Assembly: GCA_949879855.1 (NCBI GenBank)
Contig: CATLBX010000002.1
Coordinates: forward strand, 1,448 to 65,447
Direction of reading: 5' to 3'
Origin: an uncultured Coriobacteriia bacterium
Lineage (GTDB): Bacteria; Actinomycetota; Coriobacteriia; Coriobacteriales; QAMH01
DNA length: 64,000 bases
Made by a program: the position numbers and the translations under genes. The notes below the pieces were generated by a model. It had not been told where the DNA came from and made no database searches. It saw only the letters and a list, made by a program, of their open reading frames with translations. Below, piece after piece: positions 7,578-64,000 of this stretch. Numbering within the stretch: the first letter of the stretch is position 1; the number at the start of each line of letters is the position of its first letter.

Positions 7578-7592
7578 AGTTTGACCTCTCTC

Positions 7593-12842: not shown

Positions 12843-13029
12843 GGTGCTTTCGCGTCTCCTTGTTGGGTGGTTCCTCCTCGGGGGTGAACACCATACCCGT
12901 TTGGTGAGACACGAACACCCTCGTTTGCGCTCTTCAACACCCGATGTGGAGAGCAGGGCGCCATCACAAGGGGAAAACGCCGGGTTTTCCACTTATAAAC
13001 GGATTTTCGGACTTTCTCGAGCGGCAAAA

Positions 13030-13162
13030 TGTCATTTCGACCGGAGGCGCGAAGCGCCGGAGTGGAGAAATCTCCTCCGTTGCAATAAGCAAGGTGCCGC
13101 CCGCAACGAAAGGGCGAGATTTCTCGACTCCGCAGCCTTCGGTTGCTGCGCTCGAAATGACA
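13030..13162. repeat. Family B composite palindromic repeat (REPIN-like)
   Basis: TGTCATTTCGA...GAGAAATCT / AGATTTCTC...TCGAAATGACA nested inverted repeats. Confidence 0.85.
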
Positions 13163-13167
13163 AGAAG

Positions 13168-19661: not shown

Positions 19662-20801
19662 ATGCAAAACGAGGAGAGAACATCGCGGAAAGACGCGGCC
19701 AAGGCTGCCTGGCTACGGGAGCTTAGACGGCTGTGGCTCCTGGTGCCGGGCGTCATCGCGCTCGTGCTCACGATGCTCGCACGGGCGAATCCGGATACAT
19801 GTGAACATCTCTTCAGTCGTAGCGTCTACCCGTGGGTTTCGAGCGTATGGGGCTACCTGCCATCACTTGTGGGCTTCTCGGTGGCGCAATGGGTAGTGAT
19901 CATTGCCGTCGTGTCGATTGCATGCATGCTCGTCCATTACATCATGCGCATCATCAGGCGCGACGGCGAGCGCTTGCGTTACATGTACCGCCTGGTCATG
20001 AGTGTGGTTGGCATCGTGTCGATTGCGTTCTTTCTCTACGCCATGCTTTGCGGACTCAATTATTACCGTTACACCTTTGTGCAAAACGAAGGCTTCGACG
20101 TACGCGAGTCCACCACGCAGGAGCTGGTCGGTCTGTGTAACGAGCTTGCCGTCGAGCTCAATGCCACGCGCGCCGAGATTGGCGATGACATGCAGGCGCA
20201 TATCGACGAACGTGGAGGGTTTGCAGGTTACGCCGCGCGCAGCGTCGACGAGATGAAGGCCCTCGCGGAGGAGTACCCCACGCTCCAGCGACCGGTCTAC
20301 TCACGACCCAAGCCGGTGACGCTGTTCTCGCAGCTCATGTCCTATGGTGACATCACAGGCATGTACTTCGCGTTCACGGTGGAGAGCAACATCAACACGC
20401 TGCCGCCGTTCTTCACGATTCCGGCGACCATGGGTCACGAGCTCGCCCATCAATGCGGGTACATGCGTGAGGATGAAGCGAACTTCATCGGCTACCTCGC
20501 ATGCAAGCAAAGCGGTGACCCGTTCATTCGGTACAGCGGTTACTTTCACGCATATTCCTATGCGTTCTCGGCGCTCTATCAGGTTGACAAGGAGGCTGCC
20601 CGCACGATTGATGCGCAGCTTTCGGATGCGGTGCGCGCGGATTATGCGGCGAACCGGGAGTTCTGGGCAGGCTACGAGGGGCCATTCCGCGAGGTGGCCC
20701 AGGGCATGAACGACGCGTACCTGAAGGCCAACGACCAGGCCGATGGCACGCGCAGCTACGGCCGCATGGTGGACTTGCTGCTGGCGGAGAGGCGCGGGTA
20801 A
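19662..20801 (+). CDS. DUF3810 membrane protein (putative zinc metallopeptidase)
   Basis: N-terminal TMs, GLNYYR, HELAHQCGYMREDEANF. Confidence 0.85.
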   Translation: MQNEERTSRKDAAKAAWLRELRRLWLLVPGVIALVLTMLARANPDTCEHLFSRSVYPWVSSVWGYLPSLVGFSVAQWVVIIAVVSIACMLVHYIMRIIRRDGERLRYMYRLVMSVVGIVSIAFFLYAMLCGLNYYRYTFVQNEGFDVRESTTQELVGLCNELAVELNATRAEIGDDMQAHIDERGGFAGYAARSVDEMKALAEEYPTLQRPVYSRPKPVTLFSQLMSYGDITGMYFAFTVESNINTLPPFFTIPATMGHELAHQCGYMREDEANFIGYLACKQSGDPFIRYSGYFHAYSYAFSALYQVDKEAARTIDAQLSDAVRADYAANREFWAGYEGPFREVAQGMNDAYLKANDQADGTRSYGRMVDLLLAERRG

Positions 20802-20806
20802 GCGCA

Positions 20807-20889
20807 AGATTTCTCGACTACGCTCACTTCGTTTGCTTCGCTCGAAATGACATTGGGGGTGCCGCTTCGCGCCTTCGCTCGAAATGACA
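20807..20889. repeat. Family B repeat, half element plus extra unit
   Basis: AGATTTCTCGAC...CGCTCGAAATGACA...CGCTCGAAATGACA between convergent genes. Confidence 0.85.
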
Positions 20890-20894
20890 GCTCG

Positions 20895-23228
20895 CTAGTA
20901 CCTCGCGAAGCGCTCCTGGCGCTGGGCGAGCAGCTCGTCGGGCGAGAGCTCGCTGAGCTCCTCGAGGGTTTCGTTCACGTAGGCGAAGACGACCTCTGCC
21001 GCCTGCTCGGGATTCTCGTGCGCCGCACCTTCGCCCTCGGGCAGCACCGCATCCACGATGCCCAGCTCGAAGACGTCGTTGGCGCTCATACCCATGACTT
21101 CCGCCGCTTCGGGCGCGCGCGATCCGTCCTTCCAGAGAATCGACGCGAAGCCTTCGGGGGACAGCACCGAATACACCGCGTGCTGCTGCATGGCCACGCG
21201 GTTGGCGAGCGCGAGCGCAAGTGCGCCGCCGCTGCCGCCCTCGCCGAGCAGGACGCTCACGACCGGCACATGCAGACTTGCCATGAGCTCGAGGTTCTCG
21301 GCAATGGCATTGCCCTGACCGCGCTCCTCGGCCTCCATGCCGCAAAACGCGCCTTGGGTGTCGACCAGGCATACGATGGGACGGCCAAACTTCTCGGCCT
21401 GGCGCATGAGGCGCGCCGTCTTGCGATAGCCTTCCGGCTGCGGACAGCCGAAGTTGCGCTTGATGCGCTCGGGCAGCGTCGCACCCTTCTCCTGCGCGAT
21501 GATGGTGACGGGGCGTCCGTTGATGCGGCCCAGACCGGCGACGATGGCCTTGTCATCGGCAAACTCGCGATCGCCGTGCAACTCGAGGAACGACGGCGAG
21601 AGCACCTTGATGTAGGAGCTCGCCGTGGGACGATGGGTGTTGCGGGCAATCTGCACGCTCGCCCAGGCGCTTCCGGGCGCGGGCTCGGCCACGCCATCGA
21701 CTTGCTCGGCGCCACGCTTGGCGCGGAACGGGAGCTTCTGGTTCACCTTGTCGATGCCGGCCTCGGCGCCCTTCCTGATGTTCTCGACGAAGGGCAGGCG
21801 GTCGATCTGGTCGCCAATCCACTTGCGCGCGGCATCGCCGACCTTCGCCTTGTCCTCGTCTTCGTATTGCTCGGCCTTGAACGAGCCGAACAGGGCGTTA
21901 TGATCGTTACCACGCCAGGGACGGTGAAACGCCACGCCGGCGCGTAGCACGTCTCGCAACTCCCCCCGCTCGACGATGGCGTCGATGAGGCCGTGGTCGA
22001 GGGCGAACTCCGCCGTCTGGAAGCCCTCGGGGAGGTCCTGCTTGATGGTGTCGCGGATGACGCGCTGCCCGGCAAAGCCGATGAGCGCGTTGGGCTCGGC
22101 CAAGATCATGTCGCCAAGCATGGCAAACGATGCGGTGACGCCACCGGTGGTGGGGTCGGTGAGCACGGAGATGTAGAGCAGCCCCGCGCGGTCGTGACGC
22201 TCCACGGCGCAGGAGGTCTTGGCCATCTGCATGAGCGAGGCCAAGCCCTCTTGCATGCGGGCACCGCCCGACGCGCAGAAGATGATGACCGGCAGCCCCT
22301 CCTCGGTGGCGCGGTCGAACAGGCGGCTCACCTTCTCGCCGACGAGCGTCCCCATGGAGCCCATGAGGAAGTCCGACTCCATGAAGCCGAAAGCCACGGG
22401 CAGGTCGCCGAGCATGCCGCGACCGGTGCGGACGGCCTCGTGCTTGCCGGTCCTCTCACGATACGAGGCGATCTTCTCGGCATAACCGGGAAAGCCGAGC
22501 GGATCGACGTCCTCGAGGTCGGTGTCCCACTCCTCGAAGGTCCCCTCGTCCACGATGAGCGCGATGCGCTCGTCGGATGTGAGGCGCGCGAGGGTATCGC
22601 ACGAAGGACACGCGTAATCGTTATCGACGAACTCCGCGTTGTCGAAGGTGAGCTTGCACTTGTGGCAGGTGCGCCAGCGGGTGGGCTGGGCCGCATCGGC
22701 ATCGCCCGACGGCTGGCATTCGACCCAGTTCTCGAAGGTCGTGTCGATGTCGAGCGTCTTGAACACGCGCAGGCCCGCATCGGCCGCACGCTGCAGAAAG
22801 CGGTTGTCGTCGGCAAGCGCGAGCGAGTCGGTGCCAAGCAAGATGCACTGCACCTGGGCGTCGTCGGCCGCCTTGAGAACGGCGTAGGCGTTGGTGAACA
22901 GCTTGCGCGTGGGCTTGTTGCCCAGCTCGACGGTCGTGTAGGCAAAGCGCGGGTTGCTATCGAGTCGCCAATCGCCCGTGAGCGGCATGACGCTCGCGAT
23001 GCCAGCGCCGTTGATGGCGTTGTGGGCTTGCTTGACGGGCTTGCCCTGCACCATGACCAGGGCCGACGGGCCCGTCACGGAGAGGCTGTCGTCCTCGTCC
23101 GCGGGAGCCGAGAGGTGAATCAGCCCCTTGTCGTGCATGTCCGAGGCGATCTCGAGGGCGATGCGGTCGAGTCGATAGACGACGTCGACGCCCTGGTTGT
23201 TTACGGTCTTGCTCGCTTGTTCTTCCAC
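20895..23228 (-). CDS. accDA: Fused acetyl-CoA carboxylase carboxyltransferase beta+alpha with extra N-terminal domain
   Basis: CHKC...CPSC zinc finger, MGSMG, SGGARMQEG, DPTTGGVTASFA; GCPQPEGYRK, GEGGSGGA, YSVLSPEG. Confidence 0.92.
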   Translation of the reverse strand: MEEQASKTVNNQGVDVVYRLDRIALEIASDMHDKGLIHLSAPADEDDSLSVTGPSALVMVQGKPVKQAHNAINGAGIASVMPLTGDWRLDSNPRFAYTTVELGNKPTRKLFTNAYAVLKAADDAQVQCILLGTDSLALADDNRFLQRAADAGLRVFKTLDIDTTFENWVECQPSGDADAAQPTRWRTCHKCKLTFDNAEFVDNDYACPSCDTLARLTSDERIALIVDEGTFEEWDTDLEDVDPLGFPGYAEKIASYRERTGKHEAVRTGRGMLGDLPVAFGFMESDFLMGSMGTLVGEKVSRLFDRATEEGLPVIIFCASGGARMQEGLASLMQMAKTSCAVERHDRAGLLYISVLTDPTTGGVTASFAMLGDMILAEPNALIGFAGQRVIRDTIKQDLPEGFQTAEFALDHGLIDAIVERGELRDVLRAGVAFHRPWRGNDHNALFGSFKAEQYEDEDKAKVGDAARKWIGDQIDRLPFVENIRKGAEAGIDKVNQKLPFRAKRGAEQVDGVAEPAPGSAWASVQIARNTHRPTASSYIKVLSPSFLELHGDREFADDKAIVAGLGRINGRPVTIIAQEKGATLPERIKRNFGCPQPEGYRKTARLMRQAEKFGRPIVCLVDTQGAFCGMEAEERGQGNAIAENLELMASLHVPVVSVLLGEGGSGGALALALANRVAMQQHAVYSVLSPEGFASILWKDGSRAPEAAEVMGMSANDVFELGIVDAVLPEGEGAAHENPEQAAEVVFAYVNETLEELSELSPDELLAQRQERFARY

Positions 23229-23723: not shown

Positions 23724-23756
23724 AATGAGACAAATACCCTGTGTATTTGTCTCATT
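23724..23756. repeat. Family A REP; contains the fabF stop
   Basis: Perfect copy; TCA at 23752-23754 is the fabF TGA. Confidence 0.95.
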
Positions 23757-25038
23757 CGTAGGGGCTGAAGGCGAGGGTCGCGTTGTGACCGCCGAAGCCG
23801 AGCGAGTTGGAGAGCGCGACCTTCTGCGGCGTGTTCTCGAGAGGCTCGACGACGACGTTGACGGCGCACTCGGGGTCGGCCTCGGCAAAGCCGGCCGTGG
23901 GCGGAACGCAATCGCGGGCAACCGAGAGCGCGCAGACGATGGCCTCGACGGCACCGGCCGCACCGAGCGTGTGGCCCGTCGTGCCCTTGATGGAGGTCAC
24001 CGGAATCTTCGCGGCGAGCTCGTCGTCATCGCACAGCGCGTAGAGCGCGATCGACTCGGTCTTGTCATTGGCGGGCGTGCCCGTGCCATGGGCGTTGACG
24101 TGGCCGATGTCGGCGGGCGTGAAACCGCCCTCCTCGAGCGCCTGGCGCATGGAGCGCACGATGCCGGCGCCCTCGGGGTCGGGGGCCGTCATGTGGTAGG
24201 CGTCGCCGGTCGAGCCGTAGCCGGTTATCTCGGCGAGGGGCGTCGCGCCACGCTTGAGCGCATGTTCAAGTGATTCGATGACGAGCGCACCAGCGCCTTC
24301 ACCGGCGACGAAGCCCTTGCGGCGCACGTCGAAGGGAAGGGATGCCTGCGTGGGATCCTCGGTCTTGGAGAGCGCGCCGAGATTGGTGAAGCCGGCGATG
24401 CAGATGGGCGACACCGACTCCTCGGAACCACCGACGAGCGCGGCGTCGGCATAGCCGTGGCGAATGGCGTGAACGGCCTCGCCGATGTTATGCGCACCGG
24501 TCGCGCAGGCCGTGACCACGTTGATGCAGGCGCCATGGATACCGTAGCGGATGGCGAGGTTGCCGGCGGCGATGTTGCCGATCATGGTGGGGACGAACAG
24601 CGGGCTCACGCGCTTGGGGCCCTTGTCGGAAAGCGTCTCGAAGCCCTTCTGCAGCTCGTCGATGCCGCCGATGCCCGTGCCGAAGGCGATGGCGACGCGC
24701 GTGGAGTCGACCTCGTCCATGTTCAGGCCAGCCTGAGCCATGGCCTCGTCGGCCGCGACCATGGCGTACTGGACGAAACGCTCGAAGCGGCGGGCCTCCT
24801 TCTTGGAGAGGCCGTGCTCGGTGGCGTCGAAGTCACGCACCTCGCCGGCGTTGTGGACCTCGTATTCGGAGGTGTCGAAACGCTCGATAGGTGCGATGCA
24901 GCACTGCTTGCCCATGACCGCATCCCAGAGCGCGTCCACACCGACACCGGCCGGTGAGACGGCGCCCATGCCCGTGATGACGACGCGTTGCGTGCCATCG
25001 GGACGGCGTAGGTTCATGTTCTCGTTTGTCGTGCTCAT
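23752..25038 (-). CDS. fabF: 3-oxoacyl-ACP synthase II
   Basis: VVITGMG, TACATG, DAYHMT, NAHGTGT, KGTTGHTLGAAG, NSLGFGGHN. Confidence 0.96.
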   Translation of the reverse strand: MSTTNENMNLRRPDGTQRVVITGMGAVSPAGVGVDALWDAVMGKQCCIAPIERFDTSEYEVHNAGEVRDFDATEHGLSKKEARRFERFVQYAMVAADEAMAQAGLNMDEVDSTRVAIAFGTGIGGIDELQKGFETLSDKGPKRVSPLFVPTMIGNIAAGNLAIRYGIHGACINVVTACATGAHNIGEAVHAIRHGYADAALVGGSEESVSPICIAGFTNLGALSKTEDPTQASLPFDVRRKGFVAGEGAGALVIESLEHALKRGATPLAEITGYGSTGDAYHMTAPDPEGAGIVRSMRQALEEGGFTPADIGHVNAHGTGTPANDKTESIALYALCDDDELAAKIPVTSIKGTTGHTLGAAGAVEAIVCALSVARDCVPPTAGFAEADPECAVNVVVEPLENTPQKVALSNSLGFGGHNATLAFSPYE

Positions 25039-25796
25039 AGGGAAAGTCCTCCGTCGATGCTGATTACCTGGCCGGTGATGTAGGATGCCGCGGGGCTTGC
25101 CAGGAAGGCCACGAGGTCGGCCACGTCCGCGGCCTCGCCCAGACGGCCAAGGCCGATCTGGGACGTGATGGCTTCCTTCTGCTGGTCGTTCAGGGCATCG
25201 GTCATGTCGGTCGCGATGAAACCGGGGGCAACGGCGTTGACCCTGATGCTGCGACGCGCGAGCTCCTTGGCGAGCGACTTGGTGAGGCCGATGACGCCGG
25301 CCTTGGAGGCCGCATAGTTGGCCTGGCCCGCGTTGCCCGCGATGCCGACGATGCTGCTCATGTTAACGATCGCGCCACTGCGCTGCTTCATCATGTACTT
25401 GGCCGCGGCCTTGCAACAATTGAAGGTGCCCTTGAGGTTCACGTCGATGACGGCGTCGAAGTCGTCCTCGCCCATGCGGGCGATGAGGCCGTCGCGCGTG
25501 ATGCCGGCGTTGTTGACCAGCACGTCAATGCGGCCGAGCTCGGCCACCGTCTCGTCCACGAGCGCCTTGGCGGCATCGGCATTCGCAACGTTTGCCACGA
25601 CGACCAGCGTGCGCACGCCGTAATCGTTGGCAATCTGCTCGGCAGCCTGGGTGGTGCGCTCGAAGCTCGACTCGCTCGAGCAGTTGAGGCACACGTCGTG
25701 GCCGCCTGCGGCAAGCGCCTGCGCACAGGCAAGGCCAATGCCACGGCCTGAGCCGGTGACAAGGGCGACGGGGGCGGCCTGATCGGTGTTACTCAT
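25035..25796 (-). CDS. fabG: 3-oxoacyl-ACP reductase
   Basis: TGSGRGIG, NNAGITRD, NYAASKAG; fab operon context. Confidence 0.96.
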   Translation of the reverse strand: MSNTDQAAPVALVTGSGRGIGLACAQALAAGGHDVCLNCSSESSFERTTQAAEQIANDYGVRTLVVVANVANADAAKALVDETVAELGRIDVLVNNAGITRDGLIARMGEDDFDAVIDVNLKGTFNCCKAAAKYMMKQRSGAIVNMSSIVGIAGNAGQANYAASKAGVIGLTKSLAKELARRSIRVNAVAPGFIATDMTDALNDQQKEAITSQIGLGRLGEAADVADLVAFLASPAASYITGQVISIDGGLSL

Positions 25797-29279: not shown

Positions 29280-29312
29280 AACAAAAATGTTCAGCGACTG
29301 AACATTTTTGTT
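29280..29312. terminator. Perfect AT-rich hairpin after fabH, at the left edge of the accessory islet
   Basis: AACAAAAATGTTCAG-CGA-CTGAACATTTTTGTT. Confidence 0.55.
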
Positions 29313-36736: not shown

Positions 36737-36890
36737 GAGATTTCTCGACTCCGCTTCGCATCGCTCGAAATGACAGTGGGAACGCCGCTGCGTCCACTTC
36801 GGTCGAAATGACACCGGACCGCCTCGCCGCTCGAAATGACATTGGACCGCCACTCCGCTCGAAATGACAGCACGCCGTCGCGTTCGAAAT
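36737..36890. repeat. Family B repeat cluster (tandem TCGAAATGACA units)
   Basis: GAGATTTCTCGAC, then four TCGAAATGACA units and one degenerate TCGAAAT. Confidence 0.85.
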
Positions 36891-38962: not shown

Positions 38963-39071
38963 GCGCAGGTTCCCATAAGCCATAACCTGCGCAAACACGG
39001 GCGTTTTGCTTGCATGGCACACGGTCACGATATATCCTCAACAGCAATTCCGCTCCAGAGAAAGGTCGATC

Positions 39072-39623
39072 ATGTCAACTGATTTCATCGCCATCGGGCA
39101 GCGCATCCAGGGCATTCGCGAGGCCTGCGACGTCACGCGCGAGGACATGGCAGCCGACCTCGACGTCGATCTGGAGACCTACACCAAGTGGGAGGAGACC
39201 GGCGCCGACGTGCCCATCTCGGCCATCTATCACATGGCCAACCGCTTCGGCATCGAGTTCACCGAGATCCTGACGGGCAAGTCGGGACACCTCGACACCT
39301 TCCATCTCATCAAGGCGGGCGAGGGCCGCGAGGTCGACCGCATCCCCGGCTACCACTTCGAGGACCTGGCCTGGCGCTTCACGCAGAAGGACTTCCAGCC
39401 GCTGCTCGTTACGCTTGACCCCCACGACGAGCCCGCAGAGCTCGTCGACCACCGCGGCCAGGAGTTCAACTACATCCTCGAGGGTTCCATCGTCTTCACC
39501 TTCGACGACCGCGAAATCATCCTCGATGCGGGTGATTCCATCTTCTTCAATCCGGAGCACATGCACGGGCAGCGCTGCAACAGCGATGTGCCCGCCAAGT
39601 TCCTCACCATCATCAGCGAATGA
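39072..39623 (+). CDS. XRE HTH + cupin regulator
   Basis: IGQRIQGIRE HTH; HRGQEFNYILEG...GDSIFFNPEHMHG. Confidence 0.92.
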   Translation: MSTDFIAIGQRIQGIREACDVTREDMAADLDVDLETYTKWEETGADVPISAIYHMANRFGIEFTEILTGKSGHLDTFHLIKAGEGREVDRIPGYHFEDLAWRFTQKDFQPLLVTLDPHDEPAELVDHRGQEFNYILEGSIVFTFDDREIILDAGDSIFFNPEHMHGQRCNSDVPAKFLTIISE

Positions 39624-39651
39624 GACAAATACACAGGGTATTTGTCTCATT
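39619..39651. repeat. Family A REP; contains the XRE-cupin stop
   Basis: AATGAGACAAATAC-ACAGG-GTATTTGTCTCATT; TGA at 39621-39623. Confidence 0.95.
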
Positions 39652-43772: not shown

Positions 43773-43840
43773 CGCGATACCGTCGTTTCCCTCGTCATTG
43801 GGCTTTGATAGCGTAATCGTTCATTATAACCAGCCCCCAA

Positions 43841-44034
43841 TGTCATTTCGACCGGAGCCACCGTCAGACTTGCTCTCCATATCATTTCGACCGGAGCCGC
43901 CGTCAGGCGGCGTAGTGGAGAAATCTCGTCCTTCCGCTGTGGTTGAGACCGAGATTTCTCGACTCCAGGGCTTCGCCCCTTCGCTCGAAATGACAGTGGG
44001 GGCGTTGCTACGTCTCCTTCGCTCGAAATGGCAC
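43841..44034. repeat. Family B composite repeat
   Basis: Two TCATTTCGACCGGAG units, GGAGAAATCT/AGATTTCTC, two GCTCGAAATG units. Confidence 0.85.
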
Positions 44035-44929: not shown

Positions 44930-44964
44930 AATGAGACAGATTTGTCTGACCAATCTGTCTCATT
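44930..44964. repeat. 35-bp REP variant A'
   Basis: AATGAGACAGAT-TTGTCTGACCA-ATCTGTCTCATT. Confidence 0.9.
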
Positions 44965-46288: not shown

Positions 46289-46321
46289 AATGAGACTACT
46301 ACCCCGTGTATTTGTCTCATT
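46289..46321. repeat. Degenerate family A REP; contains the serC stop
   Basis: AATGAGACTACTAC-CCCGT-GTATTTGTCTCATT; TCA at 46317-46319. Confidence 0.9.
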
Positions 46322-47396
46322 TGTTGTTGGCTTCGAACTCACCCATGAAATCGACGAGAGCCTGGACGCCCTCGATGGGCATAGCGTTGTAGATGCTCGC
46401 ACGCATGCCACCCACGCTGCGATGGCCCTTGATATTGACCAGGCCGGCGGCGGTCGCCTCGGCGATGAACTTCTTGTCGAGCTCCTCGTCGCCCGTGACG
46501 AAGGGGACGTTCATGATGGAGCGGTCCTCGGGCACGACCGTGCCCTTGAAGAGCTCGCTCTGGTCGAGGAAGTCATAGAGCAGCTTGGCCTTGGCCTCGT
46601 TGCGCTCCTTCATGGCCTCGAGGCCACCGAGCTCCTTGATCCACTTGAACACGAGGCCGCACACGTAGATGCCATAGCACGGCGGCGTGTTGTAGAGGCT
46701 ACCGGCATCGGCCTGCGTCTTGAAGCGCAGCATCGTGGGCACGCCGGGCAGGTCGTCCGGGATGAGGTCCTCGCGCACGATGACGATCTGCACGCCGGAG
46801 GGACCCACGTTCTTCTGCACGCCCGCGTGGATGAGACCGTACTTGCTCACATCCACCGGCTCGGACAGGAACATCGAACTCTGGTCGGCCACGAGCACAT
46901 GGCCCTTGGTGTTGGGCAGCTCGTGAATGCGGTTACCCTGGATGGTCTCGTTCTCGCAGATGTAGACATAGGACGCGTCATCGCGGATGTCGAGGTCGGA
47001 GAGGTCGGGGATGCTCGAGAAGTTGTCGTCGGCACCAGTCGCCACGACCTTGGGGTCACCCAGGATCTCGGCCTCCTTGAGCGCCTTCTTCGACCAGCTG
47101 CCCGTGACGATGTAGTCGGCCTTGCCATTGGTGGCGAGGTTCATGAACACCGATGCGAACAGCAGCGAGTCACCGCCCTGCAGGAAGAGCACCTTGTAGT
47201 TGTCCGGAATGTTCATGAGCTCGCGCAGGTCGGCCTCGGCCTCGGTAATGATCTTGGTGAAAGCCGCGGAGCGATGGCTCATCTCCATGACGGACATGCC
47301 GCAGCCCTCGTAATCGAGCATCTCGTCTGCGGCCTGTTGCAGGACCTCCTCGGGGAGTACCGCCGGACCGGCGGAAAAGTTGTACACGCGTGCCAT
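46317..47396 (-). CDS. serC: Phosphoserine aminotransferase
   Basis: YNFSAGPAVLP, EMSHRS, AGVQKNVGP, LYNTPP, GHRSVGGMRASIYNA. Confidence 0.97.
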   Translation of the reverse strand: MARVYNFSAGPAVLPEEVLQQAADEMLDYEGCGMSVMEMSHRSAAFTKIITEAEADLRELMNIPDNYKVLFLQGGDSLLFASVFMNLATNGKADYIVTGSWSKKALKEAEILGDPKVVATGADDNFSSIPDLSDLDIRDDASYVYICENETIQGNRIHELPNTKGHVLVADQSSMFLSEPVDVSKYGLIHAGVQKNVGPSGVQIVIVREDLIPDDLPGVPTMLRFKTQADAGSLYNTPPCYGIYVCGLVFKWIKELGGLEAMKERNEAKAKLLYDFLDQSELFKGTVVPEDRSIMNVPFVTGDEELDKKFIAEATAAGLVNIKGHRSVGGMRASIYNAMPIEGVQALVDFMGEFEANNK

Positions 47397-47534
47397 GTGA
47401 GTCAGCTTCCTTTCAACCTGAATATGCGAGCGGACTTGCAGTTTAAGCAAGTCCGCTTTCACATCATAGCAGGTTGTGACTGGCACGAATGTAGCATTAC
47501 GCACAAATGGCCAGATGGGCACCCGCGTGAATAC

Positions 47535-47560
47535 ATGGAGCGCAATTGCTCGCGCTCCAT
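47535..47560 (-). terminator. Hairpin just after the hpf stop
   Basis: ATGGAGCGC-N8-GCGCTCCAT. Confidence 0.5.
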
Positions 47561-47572
47561 ATCGCGTTACCC

Positions 47573-48148
47573 CTAGGCGTTGACGATGGGCCTGATGATG
47601 CCGTAACCGCCGTTCTTGCGATGGTAGATGACCTGGACCTGATGGGCGTCCTGGTCGAAGTAGACGAAGAAGTCATGGCCGAGCAGGTCGGTCTGCACGA
47701 GGGCGTGCTCCTCGGTCATGGGCTCCATCTCGACTTCCTTCAGGCGTACGAGCAGATCGTCGTCTTCCTCGGGCTCGGTGGGAATGACATCGGGGATGTC
47801 GAGCTCTTCGGGCTGGAGGTGACGGATGGTGCTCCTGCCGCCGCGACGCTCGACGAGACGCGTCTTGTACTTGCGCAGCTGGCGGGCGACCTTGTCGGAG
47901 GCCAGGTCGATGGCCGCGTACATGTCCTCGGCGGATTCTGCCACGCGGATGACGGCACCCTTGGCGTTGACCGTGACCTCGCAGATGGCGTTGAGCGAGA
48001 TGGCCGGGTTCTTCTCGGTGCGCAGGACGACTTCGGCGTCCATGGCGGCGCTATCGAAGACCTCGAGCGAGCGGGCGATCTTCTCGTCGACGTAATCCTT
48101 GATGGCAGGGGTGACGTTCATCTTTCGCCCTGAAACTGTAATAGCCAT
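47573..48148 (-). CDS. hpf: Long-form ribosome hibernation promoting factor (RaiA/HPF)
   Basis: ITVSGRKMNVTPAIKDYV, DMYAAID...RQLRKYK, PMTEEHA...LGHDFF...YG. Confidence 0.96.
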   Translation of the reverse strand: MAITVSGRKMNVTPAIKDYVDEKIARSLEVFDSAAMDAEVVLRTEKNPAISLNAICEVTVNAKGAVIRVAESAEDMYAAIDLASDKVARQLRKYKTRLVERRGGRSTIRHLQPEELDIPDVIPTEPEEDDDLLVRLKEVEMEPMTEEHALVQTDLLGHDFFVYFDQDAHQVQVIYHRKNGGYGIIRPIVNA

Positions 48149-49211: not shown

Positions 49212-49460
49212 GCGCTCCTCCCAACTGACCTGGTTTTTGACCCCACACTCGCATACAGAAACTTTTGCCTGATACTATCTCACTACTCATTTTCTCGCCC
49301 GGGCCACCGTATGTGACCTTAACGGACGGTACGTCTTACCCCTAAGATGCGCCATGCTCACGTCCGGGAAACCCGCACGCTTACGTGGATCCTTTCGACC
49401 GCATCTGCCTTGGACTAGAGCCGTTTTACCAGCTCGCAACCACAGACTTGGGAGGAGCAC
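49212..49460 (-). ncRNA. raiA-motif RNA
   Basis: Closing stem GUGCUCCUCCCAA/UUGGGAGGAGCGC; in-order blocks UGUGGUUG, GAUCCACGUAAG, GAGCAUGG, CUUAG..GUAAG, GGCGAGA, AGUAGUGAGA, GCGAGUGUGGGGUCAA.ACCAGGUCA as recalled for raiA RNAs; TACACT -10 just upstream; PBP and hpf downstream. Confidence 0.88.
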
Positions 49461-49494: not shown

Positions 49495-51711
49495 CTAGAT
49501 TCTCCGCAAAACAAAACAATGGTGGACCTTGGCGTGACGCTCGAAATCCAACGGTATGGTCTTGTCGGTGATGTCCACGACCTGCACGCCCGCGCGTTCG
49601 ATCGTCTCCCGGTCGAGCTTGAATCCACGCAGATTACACGAGAAGACGGCGGCACCGCCACGGGTCAGCAGTCGGCTCACGCCGATGAGCAGTTCCGCGT
49701 GGTCGCGTTGCACGTCCCATCCGCGTTGGCGCATCTTCGCGGAATTCGAGAAGGTGGGCGGGTCGACGAAGATGAGGTCCCAGCGCATCTTGGTGTGCCG
49801 CGTCTGGGTGACCCACTCGACGCAATCGGCGCGCACGAACTCCTGATGGCCGTTCATGAGGCCGTTGAGCTCCATGTTGCGCTCGCCCCATTGCAGGTAG
49901 GTGTTCGAGAGGTCGACGCTCGTCGTGAACTTCGCCCCGCGTGCGGCTGCATAGACGCTGGCCGTGCAGGTGTAGGCGAAGAGGTTGAGGAAGCTCTTGC
50001 CCGCGGCGAGCTTGCCGACCAGCTCGCGCGTGTCGCGATGGTCGAGGAACAGGCCCGTGTCGAGATAGCTCGCGAGGTCCACCTCGAACAGCAGCCCGTT
50101 CTCCTGCGTAACAAGTGCCCCTGACCGGGCGAATGAGACAGATGTGTCTGACCAAACTGTCTCATTTCTTGCGTATTGCGAACCGCCCTTGGCCCGAACG
50201 CGACGCTTCACGAAGATGTCGTCCGCGGGAACATCGAGCACGACGCTCGCGATGTTGAGGGCATCGGTCATGCGGCGCGCGGCCTTGGCCGCATCGATGT
50301 TCTTGGGGGGCACGTACTCGGCAACGTGCACGAGCCGCCTGCCCGCATCCTTGCCCGCTCCCTCGTAGAGGTCGATGGCCATGTTGTAGTCGGGAAGGTC
50401 GGCATCGTAGATGCGAAAGGCCGAGACCTTGTTCTTGGCAGCCCATTTGCGGCGATGCTTGAAGACCTTGTTGAGGCGGTCGGCGAATTGCTGGGCTCCC
50501 GCGTCGTAAACCGCGATGTCGCAATCGCGCACACTCACCTGCGTCCGTTGCCCCGCGCTCGCATGCAGGTCGAAGAGCGCGATATCGCAGGGGGCAGAGC
50601 CGTTCATGCACGCAAAGCCCTCGCTGCGCTCCATGCCCAGATAGGCATCGGCATCTTGGCTACCCACGAGCATGACGGCCGCATCGAGCTGCTTGTAGCC
50701 AAGGAGCTGGCGTGCAAGCTGCGCATAGCATGCGGGCAACGTCGCCTCGGGAACCTCGGCGGTAACGAAGAGGCAGCTCGCGAACACGCCGCGAACATCA
50801 TGATGTCGTGCGAGCGCGGTATCTAGCGCGTTCTCGTCTGCCAGGAACTCGATGAGGGATGCCACGGCGGCGGCCTTGGCCCGGGCTTGCGCGCAGGCTA
50901 TCTCTCGTTCGCGCGCGTCCGTCGCGTATATCGCGACCGCGCGCCGCCCCTCTTGCGCACGGGCGTCGGCTGCATCGAGGGCGGCTTCCCAAAGCCCCTC
51001 GTCGTGACCGAACCACCCGGCAAAGCCCCAGTTGGAGCGCGTGATACCCGGAGCTATGTCGGCTGCTATCAAGGCGGCCTCGATGGCGAGGGTGCCGGCA
51101 GCGGCCATGCTATCCACGAGCACTTCGCCACGGCGCGCGCGTTCGGGCCAGCCGATTGCAAGCAGCATGCCCGCCGCAAGCGTCTCGTGCACGAACGGGG
51201 AGGTGCCTCGCGCGGCTTCGCGATAGCCGCGGTCCTCCAGCGACGTTCCCGACAGGTCGAGGTAGATGGTCGCGCGGTTGCCACGCAGGTTCACCTGGAT
51301 GCGCAGATCGGGATGCTGGGCGTCAACGTCCGGACGTTCGCCGCGCACGTCACGCAGCCGGTCGCAGATGGCGTCCTTCACGCGCAACGCCGTATAGCGG
51401 GTGTCGCGCAACTGGTCGTTGGTGCCACGGGCACTCACGGCGATGGTCGCCCCCACGGCGACGTAATCCTCCCAGGCAAGCTCGTGCACGCCCGCGTAGA
51501 TACTATCGGAATCCGACGCCTTGACGCGTTCGACCACCAGGAGGATGCGACTCGCGACACGCGACCACAGCAGGGCGGTGTAGATCTGCTCCAGGTTCGC
51601 CGTAAACGCGACACCACCGGTCAGGGGTCGAACCTCGTCCATTCCGAGGTCACGTAGCTCCTGACCGAGAATCGGCTCGAGCCCGCTGCCGCATGTCGCG
51701 AAGAGCTCCAT
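49495..51711 (-). CDS. rlmL: Bifunctional 23S rRNA methyltransferase RlmKL-like
   Basis: THUMP, YLDLSG, YRIYDADLPDY-like FRIYDADLPDY, YLDTGLFLDHR, LNLFAYT, DPPTFS. Confidence 0.92.
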   Translation of the reverse strand: MELFATCGSGLEPILGQELRDLGMDEVRPLTGGVAFTANLEQIYTALLWSRVASRILLVVERVKASDSDSIYAGVHELAWEDYVAVGATIAVSARGTNDQLRDTRYTALRVKDAICDRLRDVRGERPDVDAQHPDLRIQVNLRGNRATIYLDLSGTSLEDRGYREAARGTSPFVHETLAAGMLLAIGWPERARRGEVLVDSMAAAGTLAIEAALIAADIAPGITRSNWGFAGWFGHDEGLWEAALDAADARAQEGRRAVAIYATDAREREIACAQARAKAAAVASLIEFLADENALDTALARHHDVRGVFASCLFVTAEVPEATLPACYAQLARQLLGYKQLDAAVMLVGSQDADAYLGMERSEGFACMNGSAPCDIALFDLHASAGQRTQVSVRDCDIAVYDAGAQQFADRLNKVFKHRRKWAAKNKVSAFRIYDADLPDYNMAIDLYEGAGKDAGRRLVHVAEYVPPKNIDAAKAARRMTDALNIASVVLDVPADDIFVKRRVRAKGGSQYARNETVWSDTSVSFARSGALVTQENGLLFEVDLASYLDTGLFLDHRDTRELVGKLAAGKSFLNLFAYTCTASVYAAARGAKFTTSVDLSNTYLQWGERNMELNGLMNGHQEFVRADCVEWVTQTRHTKMRWDLIFVDPPTFSNSAKMRQRGWDVQRDHAELLIGVSRLLTRGGAAVFSCNLRGFKLDRETIERAGVQVVDITDKTIPLDFERHAKVHHCFVLRRI
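50132..50166. repeat. 35-bp REP variant A' inside the rlmKL CDS
   Basis: AATGAGACAGAT-GTGTCTGACCA-AACTGTCTCATT, read as NETVWSDTSVSF. Confidence 0.88.
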
Positions 51712-51725
51712 GGCACCGTGCTCGT

Positions 51726-52781
51726 CTAGTTCTTCGAGAAGAAGCCGTCGATGGGCGGGGGAGCGCCGTGCGAACGGCCGGAAGACCCCGGCATGTCGTT
51801 GTCATCGAAGAGGTCCGAGCCGCCGAAGAGGTCGTCGAACCGCTCGCAGCGTTCGTTGAAGCCGTCGGCGAGCGCCCAATCCAGACCGTAGTCGGCGCAG
51901 GTCTGCTCGTCTTCGTAAAGCAGCGCGAGCGCCTGGATGCTCATTTCCTCCCCGCCGACCACCTGCAGCAGTTCGTAGAGCTGATAGGCGGTTTCGGTCA
52001 TGGGGATGGTCACCTCGAGCTCTTCGGCGACGTCCAGCGCCACGTCGAGCATGTCGAGGAAGCTCGCGATGTCGATGGCCCCCGTGTAGTCATGACCGAG
52101 CACCTGCGGGATGTAGTCGACGAGCGCGCGGGAGCCACCCGAAGTCGAGGCAAGCACGTTGAGCGCGTTCTTCTCGGGAAAGCCCGCGATGTGCGCGAGC
52201 GAAATGGCCTCGACGGCGCCCATGAGCGACCCGGCCAGCGCGATGATGCTGATCATGGCCGCGAACTGTCCGTCGCCCGCCGCCTCCTGCGGCATGATGC
52301 GGGGCGCGAGGAACGGGAACAGCGGCGAAAGGGTCTCCTGCGCCTGCGGGTCGCCACCCACGAAGGCCACGGGCTGCTCGTGCTCGCCCACGCAGACGAT
52401 GGGGGCGTCGAGCACCTCGATGTCGGAGACGGCGGCAACCGCCTGGATCTCGCGGGCGAGACGCGGGCTCGATATGCTCAGGTCGATGCAGAAGGTACCC
52501 GGATCCATGAGTTCGAGCAGGCCCTCGTCGCCCAGGTACAGGTTCTCCACGTCGGCCGTGGTGCGCAACGAGGTGATGACGACCTGACTGCCGAGCAGGG
52601 CCTCCATGCGGTCATCGACGAAGACCACGCCCGCATCGCGCAGAGCAGGAGCCTCGCGCGGGTCGTGGCTCGCGACGACGACGTCGTAACCCGCCATCTT
52701 GAGCCTGACGATTGCCTCGACGGCGGCTGGCTGCGCCGCGCCGCCAAAGAACGTGATGCGCGTGTCGAGCGGACTTAACAT
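51726..52781 (-). CDS. Divergent beta-hydroxyacid dehydrogenase (6PGD/HIBADH-like) family protein
   Basis: VVITSL, IDLSISSP, LDAPIV, VGGD; lacks GxGxxG. Confidence 0.7.
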   Translation of the reverse strand: MLSPLDTRITFFGGAAQPAAVEAIVRLKMAGYDVVVASHDPREAPALRDAGVVFVDDRMEALLGSQVVITSLRTTADVENLYLGDEGLLELMDPGTFCIDLSISSPRLAREIQAVAAVSDIEVLDAPIVCVGEHEQPVAFVGGDPQAQETLSPLFPFLAPRIMPQEAAGDGQFAAMISIIALAGSLMGAVEAISLAHIAGFPEKNALNVLASTSGGSRALVDYIPQVLGHDYTGAIDIASFLDMLDVALDVAEELEVTIPMTETAYQLYELLQVVGGEEMSIQALALLYEDEQTCADYGLDWALADGFNERCERFDDLFGGSDLFDDNDMPGSSGRSHGAPPPIDGFFSKN

Positions 52782-53753: not shown

Positions 53754-53786
53754 AATGAGACAAATACACAGGGTATTTGTCTCATT
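53754..53786. repeat. Family A REP between the pncB stop and DegV
   Basis: Perfect copy, 2 nt from the pncB stop. Confidence 0.95.
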
Positions 53787-60948: not shown

Positions 60949-61077
60949 TCACTCGTTTTTGCTGCGTATCTGAAGACAGCTATGGCTTACAATTACCCGC
61001 GGAGACAAGCGGGCGGGGCCGGAAGGCCTCAGTTGCACGATTTTAACCATATATATAAGGTTCTGGCTACCTCCATT

Positions 61078-61839
61078 TTGGAAACGATTAGCCCCACGCG
61101 CTGTATCGCGTGCGACGTTCCCGGCGACGTGCTTTGCCCGAGCTGCGCCTCATCCCTCCCCTTCATCGACCTGTCGCTTGCATGCCCCCGCTGCGGGGCG
61201 CCCTACGGTCGCGTGCTGTGCACCGAATGCCCCATGCCCGGCAGCGAGGAGGCATTGCTGCATCCCGAGGAGGCGGTCCCGTTTGCGCGGGCGCGGGCGG
61301 CGCTGTCGTTCGAAGGCGGTGCGAAGAAGATCATCCGCACGTACAAGGACGGCGACGAACTGCGCCTCGACGCCGTGATCGCGTCGCTGCTATGCGCCGC
61401 CATCCGGGGGAGAAATGAGACAAATACACAGGGTATTTGTCTCATTCCGCAGGTCAGTGAGCCGCTGGGAGACTGGTCACAGTGGGCAGATGCGCTGGCA
61501 TTCGTGCCGGCATCGCCCGAGGCGGTGCGACGGCGTGACTTCGACCACATGGAACGCGTGGCGATGCGCGTGGCCACGCGCACGGGGCTGCCGCTGGCGC
61601 GGTTGCTCACGAGCGAGCGCAAGACTCGCGACCAGCGGGAACTCGGCCGCGGCGAGCGCTTTGCGAATCGAAACGGGTCATTTTCGCTGGCAGCGGATGC
61701 AGCAGGCCCGATACCGCGGCGAATCATCCTCATCGACGACGTTTTCACGACGGGAGCAACGCTCTCGGCAGCATCGCGGGTACTCCTCGACGGCGGAACC
61801 GAGGAGGTGAGGGCAGTGACGTGCTGCAGGGTTTGGTGA
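61078..61839 (+). CDS. comF: ComF family protein (double zinc ribbon + PRTase); start uncertain (TTG 61078 or 61033)
   Basis: PTRCIAC...CPSC...CPRC...CTEC, IILIDDVFTTGATL. Confidence 0.88.
   Translation: METISPTRCIACDVPGDVLCPSCASSLPFIDLSLACPRCGAPYGRVLCTECPMPGSEEALLHPEEAVPFARARAALSFEGGAKKIIRTYKDGDELRLDAVIASLLCAAIRGRNETNTQGICLIPQVSEPLGDWSQWADALAFVPASPEAVRRRDFDHMERVAMRVATRTGLPLARLLTSERKTRDQRELGRGERFANRNGSFSLAADAAGPIPRRIILIDDVFTTGATLSAASRVLLDGGTEEVRAVTCCRVW
61414..61446. repeat. Family A REP in frame inside comF
   Basis: Perfect copy read as [11 protein letters not shown]. Confidence 0.95.
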
Positions 61840-61841
61840 CG

Positions 61842-61874
61842 AAGGAGACAAATACACAGGGTATTTGTCTCATT
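61842..61874. repeat. Family A REP, left flank of the RAYT gene
   Basis: AAGGAGACAAATAC-ACAGG-GTATTTGTCTCATT (one mismatch). Confidence 0.93.
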
Positions 61875-61889
61875 TTGAAAGGAGATTTC

Positions 61890-62648
61890 ATGGATCGGAA
61901 AAGGAAGGCAAGCGAAGGCAACATCTACCATGTGATTTCGCGTGGAACAGGGCGGCAGCTTATTTACGAGACCGATGATGACCGCCGCGTGTTCTTGCAT
62001 CTACTTCGTCAGACAATCGAGGAAGCTGAAATCGAGCTGTACGCATGGTGCCTCATGGGAAATCACTTTCACCTCCTCATTCATGGAGAGATGGAAAGAA
62101 TAGCTACATGCATGCGTCGTCTTTGTAGCTCTTATGCTCGGTGGTTCAATGGTCGGGCTGGCCGTGTGGGCCATTTGTTTCAAGAAAGGTTTAAGAGCGA
62201 GCCCATAGACACTGATGCTTATCTCCTTGCAGTCATTCGCTACATTCACGACAACCCCGCAAAGGCGCGCCTCGACCGGACATCGGAATACCGATGGTCA
62301 AGCTATCGTGAATACGTCGGCAAGCCGACTTTGTGCGCCACGGAGTTCGTCTTGGATATCTTCGGAGGCAAGGAAGCATTTCTGAGATTCCACGAGGAGT
62401 CAGGAAGCTCATGTGCGTGCCTTGATTTCGATGTCCCGAGAAACAAGACACGCCCAATGGATGATGACATGGCCATCGGCATAATGCATCGCGTTCTGGG
62501 GGATGTGGCACCAACGGATTTAAAGACGCTTCCCAAGAAAGCGAGAAACAAACGGCTCAGTGCGTTGAAGCAGAGTGGTCTCTCAGTACGGCAAATCGAA
62601 CGCCTCACGGGCATAGGACGCAATATAATTGCTCGTGTGCAAAAATGA
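61890..62648 (+). mobile_element. REP-associated tyrosine transposase (RAYT, Y1/HUH) with C-terminal HTH
   Basis: YHVISRG, YAWCLMGNHFHLL (HUH), GHLFQERFKS, YIHDNP (catalytic Y), YRWSSY; AAAGGAG RBS; flanked by REPs; lower GC. Confidence 0.93.
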
Positions 62649-62676
62649 GACAAATACCCTGTGTATTTGTCTCATT
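62644..62676. repeat. Family A REP, right flank of RAYT; supplies the stops of RAYT (+) and hypB (-)
   Basis: TGA 62646-62648 on +; TCA 62672-62674. Confidence 0.95.
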
Positions 62677-63322
62677 TCTCGATCTGCTCGGAGAGCCAGT
62701 TGGCCCACGCGTCGCCGCCGTCGCCCTTGGTCGCAGCGATGGGGAAGCTCGGGGCACTCGGGTTGAGGCGTGCGATGTGCTCGTCGAAGAGGTCCTTGTC
62801 GAAGGTGAAGGCCGGCATGACGTCGACCTTGTTGAGGATGATGGCATCGGCCACCTGGAACATGCCCGGGTACTTGAGCGGCTTGTCGTCTCCCTCGGGC
62901 ACCGAGAGAATCATCATCTTGATGTTCTCGCCCAGGTAGAAGTCGGCGGGACACACGAGGTTGCCCACGTTCTCGATGAAAATGAGGTCGATGTTGTCCA
63001 GGTCGAGCACGTCGAGCGCGCGGCGCAGCATGTCACTTTCGAGGTGACAGGCGCCTGCCGTGTTGATCTGGACGGCGGGAATGTCCATGGCCTTGATGGT
63101 CTGCGAATCGACGTCACTCGCGATGTCACCCTCAATGACGGCGATGTTGTACTTGTCACGCAGGGCGTTGATGGTCGCCACGATGGTCGAGGTCTTGCCC
63201 GATCCGGGACTGGCCAGCACATTGACCATGTAAACGCCCTTCTCATCGAGCAGGGCGCGGTTCGCTGCAGCGCCTTCGTCGTTCTTGTTCAGGATCTTCG
63301 TTTCCAGGTCGATATGTGCCAT
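62672..63322 (-). CDS. hypB: Hydrogenase nickel incorporation GTPase
   Basis: SPGSGKT, IEGD, CHLES, ENVGNLVCP, EGDDKPLKYP. Confidence 0.97.
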   Translation of the reverse strand: MAHIDLETKILNKNDEGAAANRALLDEKGVYMVNVLASPGSGKTSTIVATINALRDKYNIAVIEGDIASDVDSQTIKAMDIPAVQINTAGACHLESDMLRRALDVLDLDNIDLIFIENVGNLVCPADFYLGENIKMMILSVPEGDDKPLKYPGMFQVADAIILNKVDVMPAFTFDKDLFDEHIARLNPSAPSFPIAATKGDGGDAWANWLSEQIEK

Positions 63323-63342
63323 CTCGGGCCTCCTTTTGTGAA

Positions 63343-63375
63343 AATGAGACAAATACCCTGTGTATTTGTCTCATT
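63343..63375. repeat. Family A REP; contains the hypA stop
   Basis: Perfect copy; TCA 63371-63373. Confidence 0.95.
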
Positions 63376-63733
63376 CGTCGTCATCGGGCGTTTCGATTTC
63401 CATGGACGCGACCTCGAGCTCGCGTCCCGCTATGAGCATGGTCGCCGCCGAGTCGCAGGCGGGGCAGTGGTTGTGGAACCGGTCGTGCTCGAACTCCTCG
63501 TCGCAGTCGAGGCAACGCGACTTCGGCCTCACGAAGTCCATTTCGAGCACGCAGCCGTCCAGCAGCGGGTCATCCTCGGAAAGCGCCTCGAAGGCAAACT
63601 CCATGGCCTCGGGGACGACCATGGTCATCTCCCCGATGGTGAGCTTGATGCCCGTGATCTTGGTGGCGCCGTTTTCCCGCGCGACGGGCACGACGGACTC
63701 GAATATACCCTGGACCAGTGAGAGCTCGTGCAT
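63371..63733 (-). CDS. hypA: Hydrogenase nickel metallochaperone
   Basis: MHELSL, CLDC...CPAC, GREL. Confidence 0.97.
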   Translation of the reverse strand: MHELSLVQGIFESVVPVARENGATKITGIKLTIGEMTMVVPEAMEFAFEALSEDDPLLDGCVLEMDFVRPKSRCLDCDEEFEHDRFHNHCPACDSAATMLIAGRELEVASMEIETPDDDE

Positions 63734-64000
63734 TACGCGGCCATCTCCGCTTCTTCCTCGGCACGCTGGCGCTTGATCTTGCGCGCAAGCGCGATGCGCG
63801 CGGCCGCAAGCGACAGCTCGTAGAGGGCGAGCAGCGCGGCGAACATGATGCCCATCGTCACCGGTGACGCATCCGGCGTCACGACAGCGGAAACCACGAG
63901 CAGACCGACGTAGATGCCGCGCCAGCTGGCGCGCATCTTCTTGTACGGGACGATGTTGAACAGGATGAGGAAGAACACCACGAGAGGCAGCTCGAAGGCC
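63733..64000 (-). CDS. tatC: Twin-arginine translocase TatC, 3' end (runs off the window)
   Basis: AFELP..., WRGIYV...SAVVTPDASPVTM...LYELS. Confidence 0.85.
   Translation of the reverse strand, partial: AFELPLVVFFLILFNIVPYKKMRASWRGIYVGLLVVSAVVTPDASPVTMGIMFAALLALYELSLAAARIALARKIKRQRAEEEAEMAA

Follow-up and report, generated by a model that had tools for sequence, protein, structure and literature searches.

A RAYT-class transposase and a dispersed hairpin as a probable cognate pair in an uncultured Coriobacteriia bacterium

Why should a transposase gene that occurs once in 64 kb be bracketed by inverted copies of a short palindrome that recurs across the same DNA? We address this question in a 64,000-nucleotide stretch from an uncultured Coriobacteriia bacterium (assembly GCA_949879855.1, contig CATLBX010000002.1, positions 1,448 to 65,447; hereafter the window), in which a gene for a Y1 transposase with an HUH (histidine–hydrophobic–histidine) motif lies next to comF, between two copies of a 33-bp repetitive extragenic palindrome (REP) that we call REP33. 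The best explanation, to which we assign a probability of about 0.72, is that the two are a cognate pair: a long, helix-turn-helix (HTH)-bearing Y1/HUH transposase of the REP-associated tyrosine transposase (RAYT) class, within the group known as TIRYT or TnpAREP subclass 2.1, with REP33 as its substrate. A preliminary description of the window had already read the gene as a RAYT Y1 transposase bracketed by its own palindrome, and the motifs, the Pfam match and the inverted copies described below support it. The gene and the nine REP33 copies are as follows.

61890–62648 (+): RAYT/TIRYT-type Y1 HUH transposase gene, 252 aa; catalytic part ~1–170, HTH-like part ~186–252
61842–61874 (+): REP33, upstream bracketing copy, loop ACAGG; lies after the comF stop and before the ribosome-binding site of the transposase gene
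62644–62676 (+): REP33, bracketing the gene downstream (loop CCTGT); the transposase (+) and hypB (−) genes both stop in it, at its two TGA/TCA triplets
63343–63375 (+): REP33 between the hypA 3′ end and the hypB start; provides the hypA stop
61414–61446 (+): REP33 in comF, in frame; linker after LCAAIRGR
53754–53786 (+): REP33 separating the 3′ end of NAPRT from the start of DegV (two − strand genes)
46289–46321 (+): REP33, diverged (2 mismatches); provides the stop of gene 46317–47672 (−)
39619–39651 (+): REP33; provides the stop of gene 38979–39623 (+)
23724–23756 (+): REP33; provides the stop of gene 23752–25362 (−)
335–367 (+): REP33 upstream of purA; present in a sister genome too, with a 10-kb insertion–deletion difference beginning 2 nt rightward

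The transposase reading frame opens with an ATG at 61890, preceded by AAGGAG, and closes with a TGA (62646–62648) inside the downstream REP33. Its product, labeled P0001, carries the motifs H59-F-H61, Y118-IHDNP and Y134-RWSSY, and Pfam Y1_Tnp (PF01797) matches residues 12–122 above the family cut-off (E 5.6e-13). Across 42 homologues, H61, Y118, I119, H120, N122, P123, W136, S137 and S138 are invariant, H59 is nearly so (at least 90% of sequences), and the C-terminal part has invariant residues of its own (R219, R234, R238, T240 and G241). When the single P0001 sequence was searched with phmmer against the sequences of the Protein Data Bank (PDB), nothing was returned; a profile of the 42 homologues gave the E. 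coli TnpA-REP structure 4ER8 as its best, weak match (E 0.043), with the HUH and Y-x3-NP motifs aligned and Y118-IHD-N122-P123 falling on DYIYINP. The same structure is the best Foldseek match of the AlphaFold model of P0001 (predicted local distance difference test score, pLDDT, 87.8), with E 1.6e-7 and a template modeling (TM) score of 0.71 over 149 columns, followed by the IS608 and ISDra2 transposases (E ~2e-4). The C-terminal 67 residues are confidently modeled (pLDDT 91) as a bundle of five helices whose end resembles an HTH, and the helices at residues 192–249 include a typical helix-turn-helix segment, SVRQIERLTGIGRNIIARV. Pfam HTH families match weakly among the 42 members (HTH_7 in 13, HTH_23 in 5, HTH_28 in 1), and the Foldseek matches of this domain are weak as well (Spo0J, E 0.34; DnaA DNA-binding domain, TM 0.53); against the PDB it had no significant fold match, and its sequence matches were only spurious ones to helical repeats (protein A).

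The transposase family is large and highly diverse. A word-indexed search found 1,031 homologues, the closest 62% identical. At 50% identity, 1,001 clusters have E ≤ 1e-30. Among the best 150 of these clusters, nearly all members are about 250 aa long and match almost the whole query, HTH included, with few truncated. The window sequence was located in contig CAQIXF010000001.1 of assembly GCA_948811325.1, and the relatives of its genome are named as Coriobacteriaceae or as Coriobacteriia metagenome-assembled genomes (MAGs). No plasmid homologue exceeded 38% identity, phages yielded one match (27%), and no hairpin is obvious beside a 38%-identical homologue in a Collinsella aerofaciens record. 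The gene is present once in the window and is absent from 104 kb of repeat-bearing loci of a sister genome outside its comF locus. Its G+C content at third codon positions (GC3) is 0.55, as against 0.78–0.92 in the adjoining genes and 0.8–0.9 for the genome.

REP33 has the form AATGAGACAAATAC-N5-GTATTTGTCTCATT. All nine positions given for it in the preliminary description hold a copy, compared with no match in 100 dinucleotide-preserving shuffles; seven copies are perfect, the one at 61842 has one mismatch (AAGGAG) and the one at 46289 has two, and the density is about one per 6–8 kb. The loop is the sole asymmetric part and thus gives each copy an orientation: it reads CCTGT on the + strand at 335, 23724, 46289, 62644 and 63343 and ACAGG at 39619, 53754, 61414 and 61842, so the two copies that bracket the gene are mutually inverted. 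As single-stranded DNA, REP33 is predicted to fold into a hairpin whose stem of 14–15 bp closes a 5-nt loop, at −13.8 kcal/mol on one strand and −14.1 kcal/mol on the other (z about −11). Every REP33 copy in the window and in the sister-genome stretches is a singlet, so that the doublet arrangement of REPINs is absent from this family. The repeat had been described as footless, and this held: the oriented flanks of 24 REP33 and 18 REP35 copies (the latter a second family, introduced below) share no conserved foot, GTAG, CGTC or other tetranucleotide, and CGT follows REP33 in just three of the nine window copies. As candidate terminators, the hairpins failed on having no T-tail and on not being called by a consensus terminator scan. 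No Rfam family matches the hairpin, the sole Rfam match in the window being a raiA RNA, and the REP33 core is absent from viral contigs.

What ties hairpin to enzyme is that both vary together. The same locus, topA-comF-RAYT adjoining hypB, hypA, tatCA, IF-2B, a Na-H antiporter gene and ahcY, occurs in at least nine assemblies. Where three such genomes were compared, the neighboring proteins were 84–100% identical and the transposases 54–58%; overall the alleles at this locus are mutually 51–58% identical, beside neighboring proteins at 85–99%, and homologues in Atopobiaceae or Adlercreutzia are no more distant from them than they are from each other. Homologues in other genera sit in unrelated gene contexts. 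The GC3 contrast recurs alike in all three genomes (0.50–0.55 for the transposase, 0.73–0.92 for its neighbors). Each allele is flanked by a hairpin type of its own:

P0001 (window): AATGAGACAAATAC-ACAGG-GTATTTGTCTCATT
P0012: AATGGGACAAATG-GACAGGT-CATTTGTCCCATT
P0034: ATGAGACACATTGGACAGGTACATCTGTCTCAT
P0011: GAGACAAAGGGACAGGTCATTTGTCTC
P0076: AAGCTGACAAGGGGACAGGTCACTTGTCAGCTT
P0036: GCGTGACAAGGGGACAGGTCACTTGTCACGC
P0017: doublets with a GACTGAC-type centre
P0057-like allele: hairpins with a GCCNGGC centre

At the seven loci of relatives with flanks of the ACAGG type (L015, L019, L020, L022, L023, L025 and L033), the loop reads ACAGG upstream and CCTGT downstream on the coding strand, as in the window. 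When eight transposase loci or types were aligned, seven of the 14 stem pairs had changed on both sides, with 92% of cells paired; none of 500 shuffles reached the observed score, and slid controls were 38–54% paired. The stem GACA/TGTC and the centre AC.GG are invariant in this alignment. Beyond this locus, we took a metagenomic sample of 65 independent homologue loci with both flanks present, and in 54 of them the two flanks shared an inverted repeat of 16 nt or more, compared with four of 65 shuffled controls. Most of these inverted-repeat loci have a GGGAC(A/G)G centre, and in 15 each repeat forms a hairpin by itself, its perfect stem being 8 bp or longer. In relatives, both orthologues and paralogues of the gene have related hairpins at their flanks, with compensatory changes in the stems.

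The closest view of this covariation comes from the sister genome. Among 185,579 species-representative genomes, the 27-nt core of REP33 was found only in the MAG CAOKAE01, where it occupies 13 sites on eight contigs and so is not confined to the region around the transposase gene. CAOKAE01 is 96% identical to the window genome over the 9.5 kb upstream of the comF repeat, falling to 91% in the 3′ part of comF beside the transposase. At its comF locus it holds a different allele, P0030, 55% identical to P0001 and flanked by a 35-bp hairpin, REP35, with a doublet downstream. The window itself contains two REP35 copies:

44930–44964 (+): REP35, second hairpin family, centre GTCTGAC; intergenic
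50132–50166 (+): REP35 in frame within an RlmKL-like methyltransferase gene, 49495–51801 (−); NETVWSDTSVSF in the inter-domain linker

These two had been taken for variants of REP33, which they are not: they share with it only the outer arms, AATGAGACA/TGTCTCATT, and they are a second family, cognate to another allele, because P0030 has REP35 flanks and REP35 occupies REP33 sites in CAOKAE01. Over one orthologous stretch, the window genome (20.8 kb) has eight REP33 and no REP35, whereas CAOKAE01 (20.9 kb) has 12 REP35 (five doublets with a 20-bp spacer and two singles) and one REP33; a second sample repeats this pattern, and the dominant hairpin type of a genome region matches the resident allele. 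The description of the repeat as a single palindrome therefore stands for REP33 and fails for REP35. The core of the preliminary reading, with a palindrome dispersed through a Coriobacteriia genome and recent spread, is supported.

The two genomes differ in type at the same sites: DegV|NAPRT, the comF linker, hypA|hypB, the ahcY 3′ end and ahcY|88-aa gene, as well as in the repeats flanking the transposase. At the switched intergenic sites the outer boundaries are identical. DegV|NAPRT, with REP33 in the window genome and REP35 in CAOKAE01, differs in the inner 10–12 nt only, and at hypA|hypB a REP35 doublet in CAOKAE01 has the same boundaries as REP33 in the window genome. At tatA|IF-2B, a degenerate REP33 has lost its left half to the CAOKAE01 doublet, and the two meet within the loop. 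The site between the 88-aa gene and the next (17560–17607 in locus L014, ~5.6 kb past the window end) holds 1.5 REP33 in the window genome, AATGAGACAAATACCC joined to GAGACAAATACACAGGG, and in CAOKAE01 one REP33 followed by a GC-rich hairpin. No clean empty site was found for REP33 itself, the orthologous sites holding another hairpin.

Overwriting of this kind may also have left traces beside other hairpins. A motif N-Y-G-CAGG(T/G)CA stands directly after the hairpin in five of 94 unique flanks (for example at window 61447–61457, at 293–303 in L013 and upstream of 1652 in L002). When a conserved foot or target beside the hairpin was sought, CAGG at offset 3 was the only signal, and five of 94 is too few to define a target site. 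The motif resembles what would remain, as loop and right arm, once a newer hairpin had overwritten an older one of the ACAGG type; in one clear case, tatA|IF-2B, the CAGG signal does derive from these parts of an older hairpin.

Several of the copies are part of genes. In comF (60982–61839, +), REP33 is read in frame as an 11-aa peptide, and across the genus the same linker position encodes at least eight hairpin-derived peptides, a doublet or nothing:

REP33 peptide: window
REP35 doublet: P0122, CAOKAE01
P0012-type peptide: TMGQMDRSFVP
P0034-type peptide: NETHWTGTSVS
at least four further types
empty: IRGRTMGADIPRPP

A filled linker (L015) differs from an empty one (L029) by a 29-nt hairpin core plus an imperfect direct target duplication of ~13 nt. 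Elsewhere the hairpin ends the gene: six window genes take their stop from the arm AATGA, as its TGA or the complement (the transposase gene, hypB, hypA and those that end at 39623, 23752 and 46317), with hairpin-borne stops at 23752, 39621, 46317, 62646, 62672 and 63371. In CAOKAE01, hypA stops 30 nt earlier, at a TAA that reads GAA in the window.

Hairpins also lie at the edges of rearrangements. A 5-kb block, hypB-hypA-tatC-tatA-IF-2B-Na-H antiporter (window 62677–64000 and beyond; 10788–15872 in L014), is found in both orientations among close relatives, one way in the window genome and L015 and the other way in L022, L023, L029 and CAOKAE01, and the inversion breakpoints are at hairpins. 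In L024, which ends within the block, the antiporter gene adjoins the transposase too, and L015 retains, between hypB and the transposase gene, a remnant of the 3′ end of ahcY. A 10-kb segment (window 370–10451) is missing from CAOKAE01; its left boundary is 2 nt past the REP33 at 335, and its right boundary has no hairpin.

The window holds other short features. A second short repeat family, built on CGCTCGAAATGACA, is present at 13022–13166, 20800–20895, 36761–36883 (with 28-nt tandem units at 36800–36883) and 43833–44034, and in relatives the same motif encodes a repeated AVISSEAER peptide in ComF linkers. The raiA RNA motif (Rfam RF03072, 158 bits) lies at 49216–49456 (−), just downstream of the RlmKL-like gene. 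An unrelated single-copy perfect palindrome with a 15-bp stem, AACAAAAATGTTCAG-CGA-CTGAACATTTTTGTT, is at 29280–29312.

How might enzyme and hairpin work together? We infer catalysis, binding, cleavage and copy-making by P0001 from related enzymes, namely those of IS200/IS605 elements and E. coli TnpA-REP. By that analogy, REP33 would extrude as a hairpin on single-stranded DNA, for example at replication forks, where the enzyme would recognize the asymmetric ACAGG centre together with the stem and its invariant GACA/TGTC. Cleavage would use Tyr118 and the metal bound by the HUH motif, leaving a 5′-phosphotyrosine link, and the enzyme would then join the hairpin into other hairpin-forming sites. 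New copies may mostly land on, and replace, hairpins already resident at gene ends (older REPs or GC-rich, terminator-like stems), so that one repeat type would succeed another at unchanging sites. At one chromosomal locus, the transposase gene and the repeat on either side of it would together form a replaceable cassette.

Some observations weigh against a cognate pair working in this way. The NCBIfam model REP_Tyr_transpos (NF047646) matches residues 4–137 of P0001 at 63.1 bits, below its cut-off of 80. No foot or guide tetranucleotide is conserved outside the hairpin, and the cleavage site is not readable from sequence. CAOKAE01 retains 13 intact REP33 cores with no P0001-type transposase at the locus. 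The ~13-nt duplication, seen at the only clean empty/filled pair, is not expected from Y1 transposition. Replacement within the same boundaries could stem from homologous recombination between strains or from gene conversion via the shared 12-nt arms, with no enzyme involved. L023 combines a P0034-type copy in comF with P0012-type flanks of its transposase, an exception that makes the match of allele to copy strong rather than perfect.

An alternative is that the hairpins are host elements, such as 3′-end RNA stabilizers, terminators or protein or gyrase sites, which recombination or gene conversion spreads and makes uniform and selection keeps, with the transposase borrowing two of them as ends or riding as a passenger. 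Such elements would explain why copies sit almost solely at gene ends and supply the stops of six genes, why type switches preserve exact boundaries and the 12-nt arms, as gene conversion would, and why REP33 persists in CAOKAE01 without its cognate allele. We nonetheless consider this unlikely, because hairpin type tracks the transposase allele across genomes with 96–99% identical flanks, inverted repeats built on a common core flank 83% of the 65 homologue loci, the hairpins do not end in a T-tail and the terminator scan did not call them, and copies lie in frame inside two coding regions. Domestication of the protein as a DNA-binding factor, whose HTH would bind double-stranded palindromes in nucleoid organization or regulation after DNA movement was lost, would suit the HTH-like domain with its invariant R219, R234, R238, T240 and G241 and an apparently single-copy gene at a fixed locus; to this we give very little credence, as the catalytic HUH and tyrosine are conserved across 42 homologues, with H59 nearly invariant, and repeat types turn over fast between 96%-identical genomes.

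An ordinary mobile insertion sequence (IS) of the IS200/IS605 kind, moving as a whole unit and acquired horizontally, would leave solo hairpins as decayed ends or derivatives resembling miniature inverted-repeat transposable elements. The low GC3 of the gene in all three genomes tested fits such an origin, as do the divergence of same-locus alleles (51–58% identity, as far from one another as from alleles of other families), the unrelated contexts of homologues in other genera and the drop in flank identity near the transposase (91% in the comF 3′ part, 96% upstream). Yet the window has one copy and 13 other repeat-bearing CAOKAE01 loci have none, the same comF locus is occupied in at least nine assemblies, there is no TnpB partner, both ends are one palindrome rather than distinct left and right ends, and the mobile gene pool offers little: no plasmid homologue above 38% identity, a single phage match at 27% and no repeat in viral contigs. 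We therefore regard it as distinctly improbable.

If the pairing of P0001 with REP33 is accepted, a further step suggests itself, which we put forward tentatively and hold to be somewhat doubtful: the comF-adjacent locus may be a specificity-swapping cassette, in which deeply divergent RAYT alleles, each with a hairpin of its own, replace each other within a genus and each new enzyme rewrites the hairpins of the genome in place, one for one at fixed sites, including gene ends with stop codons and in-frame coding linkers. If true, this would be a mode of repeat turnover undescribed for REP/RAYT systems.

Where, then, does the system belong among known ones? P0001 has the traits of the Y1 HUH superfamily (HUH motif, single tyrosine, Pfam and Foldseek matches) and those of RAYT/TnpAREP proteins (Y-x3-NP around the tyrosine, and a gene bracketed by inverted copies of a dispersed palindrome). 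Its best structural match is 4ER8, from the E. coli system (REPtron), with HUH and tyrosine aligned, and both systems have an apparently single-copy gene that lies between inverted copies of an extragenic palindrome found dispersed elsewhere; E. coli TnpA-REP differs in having 165 aa and no HTH domain. E. coli REPs are reportedly G+C-rich, imperfect palindromes with a GTAG foot that the enzyme requires, clustered as bacterial interspersed mosaic elements, whereas the window palindrome is A+T-rich, perfect and footless, with the loop as its sole asymmetry. The IS200/IS605 elements IS608 and ISDra2 have the Y1 HUH fold and a hairpin-recognizing single-strand chemistry in common with the system described here, which differs from them in lacking multiple gene copies, TnpB, distinct left and right ends and a defined target tetranucleotide. 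Like the Pseudomonas REPIN–RAYT systems (Bertels and Rainey 2011, PMC3116915), it combines an apparently single-copy, vertically placed RAYT with a repeat population of its own, one family per RAYT, and the inverted REP35 doublets of CAOKAE01, with their conserved 20-bp spacer, resemble REPINs; unlike them, REP33 is a singlet, the enzyme is of another RAYT class, and the RAYT is far more divergent than its neighbors.

Judged by its sequence, we place P0001 as a putative member of the TIRYTs (TnpAREP subclass 2.1, RAYT group 1), not of the GTAG-REP RAYTs, because the protein is long and has the WSS motif and a C-terminal HTH-like domain, and because the repeats of its relatives have GGGGACAG-type centres. 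The defining features of subclass 2.1 are a long protein, an HTH at its C terminus and a serine motif next to the tyrosine, and the subclass was equated with TIRYTs and RAYT group 1; its HTH extension is like Bac_DnaA_C, HTH_23 or HTH_28, and REP-like sequences near its genes were not found (Quentin 2018, PMC6006769). The same study gives only IS200-type members for the Actinobacteridae, a related high-G+C Gram-positive subclass, and does not mention Coriobacteriia. TIRtrons, which are TIRYT genes with flanking inverted repeats, often carry GGGGWSAS, and some of these repeats are self-complementary or form moderately abundant families (Di Nocera 2013, PMC3733652). The GGGGACAG centre of relatives' repeats fits this published motif, other relatives have GGGGACGG-type centres, and the window repeat retains ACAGG only. 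In common with TIRtrons, the system has a long Y1 protein with Y-x3-NP, a serine motif after the tyrosine and a C-terminal HTH-like domain, encoded by a gene with inverted repeats at similar short distances; it differs in that the repeat is a perfect hairpin with a 14-bp stem and a centre decayed to ACAGG, dense (~1 per 6–8 kb) and located at stop codons and inside coding linkers. RAYT groups are distributed like housekeeping genes, groups 4 and 5 being slow-evolving (Bertels 2017, PMC5581495), and in the literature we found no paper on RAYTs in Coriobacteriia beyond passing mention. The proposal of a distinct, poorly described system is thus too strong as to class, and correct as to host: the system is probably one of the TIRYT/subclass 2.1 kind, here in a host group new for it, with a true REP-like hairpin, a high density and a striking pattern in which alleles and repeat types replace one another at fixed sites.

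REP/RAYT biology has so far been almost wholly that of Proteobacteria and of GTAG-tagged repeats, and for the largest RAYT class (group 1, subclass 2.1 or TIRYT) the structure of the DNA substrate was not previously known. The system described here probably gives this class a clear hairpin substrate in abundant human-gut Actinomycetota. For genome annotation it is relevant that such hairpins provide stop codons, lie at the edges of an inversion and an insertion–deletion difference, and are translated within the linkers of ComF and RlmKL. The many natural allele–hairpin pairs with compensatory changes provide a ready-made specificity series for biochemistry, and two genomes with 96% identical flanks, differing alleles and differing hairpins at the same sites are a natural experiment on how fast a repeat follows its transposase.

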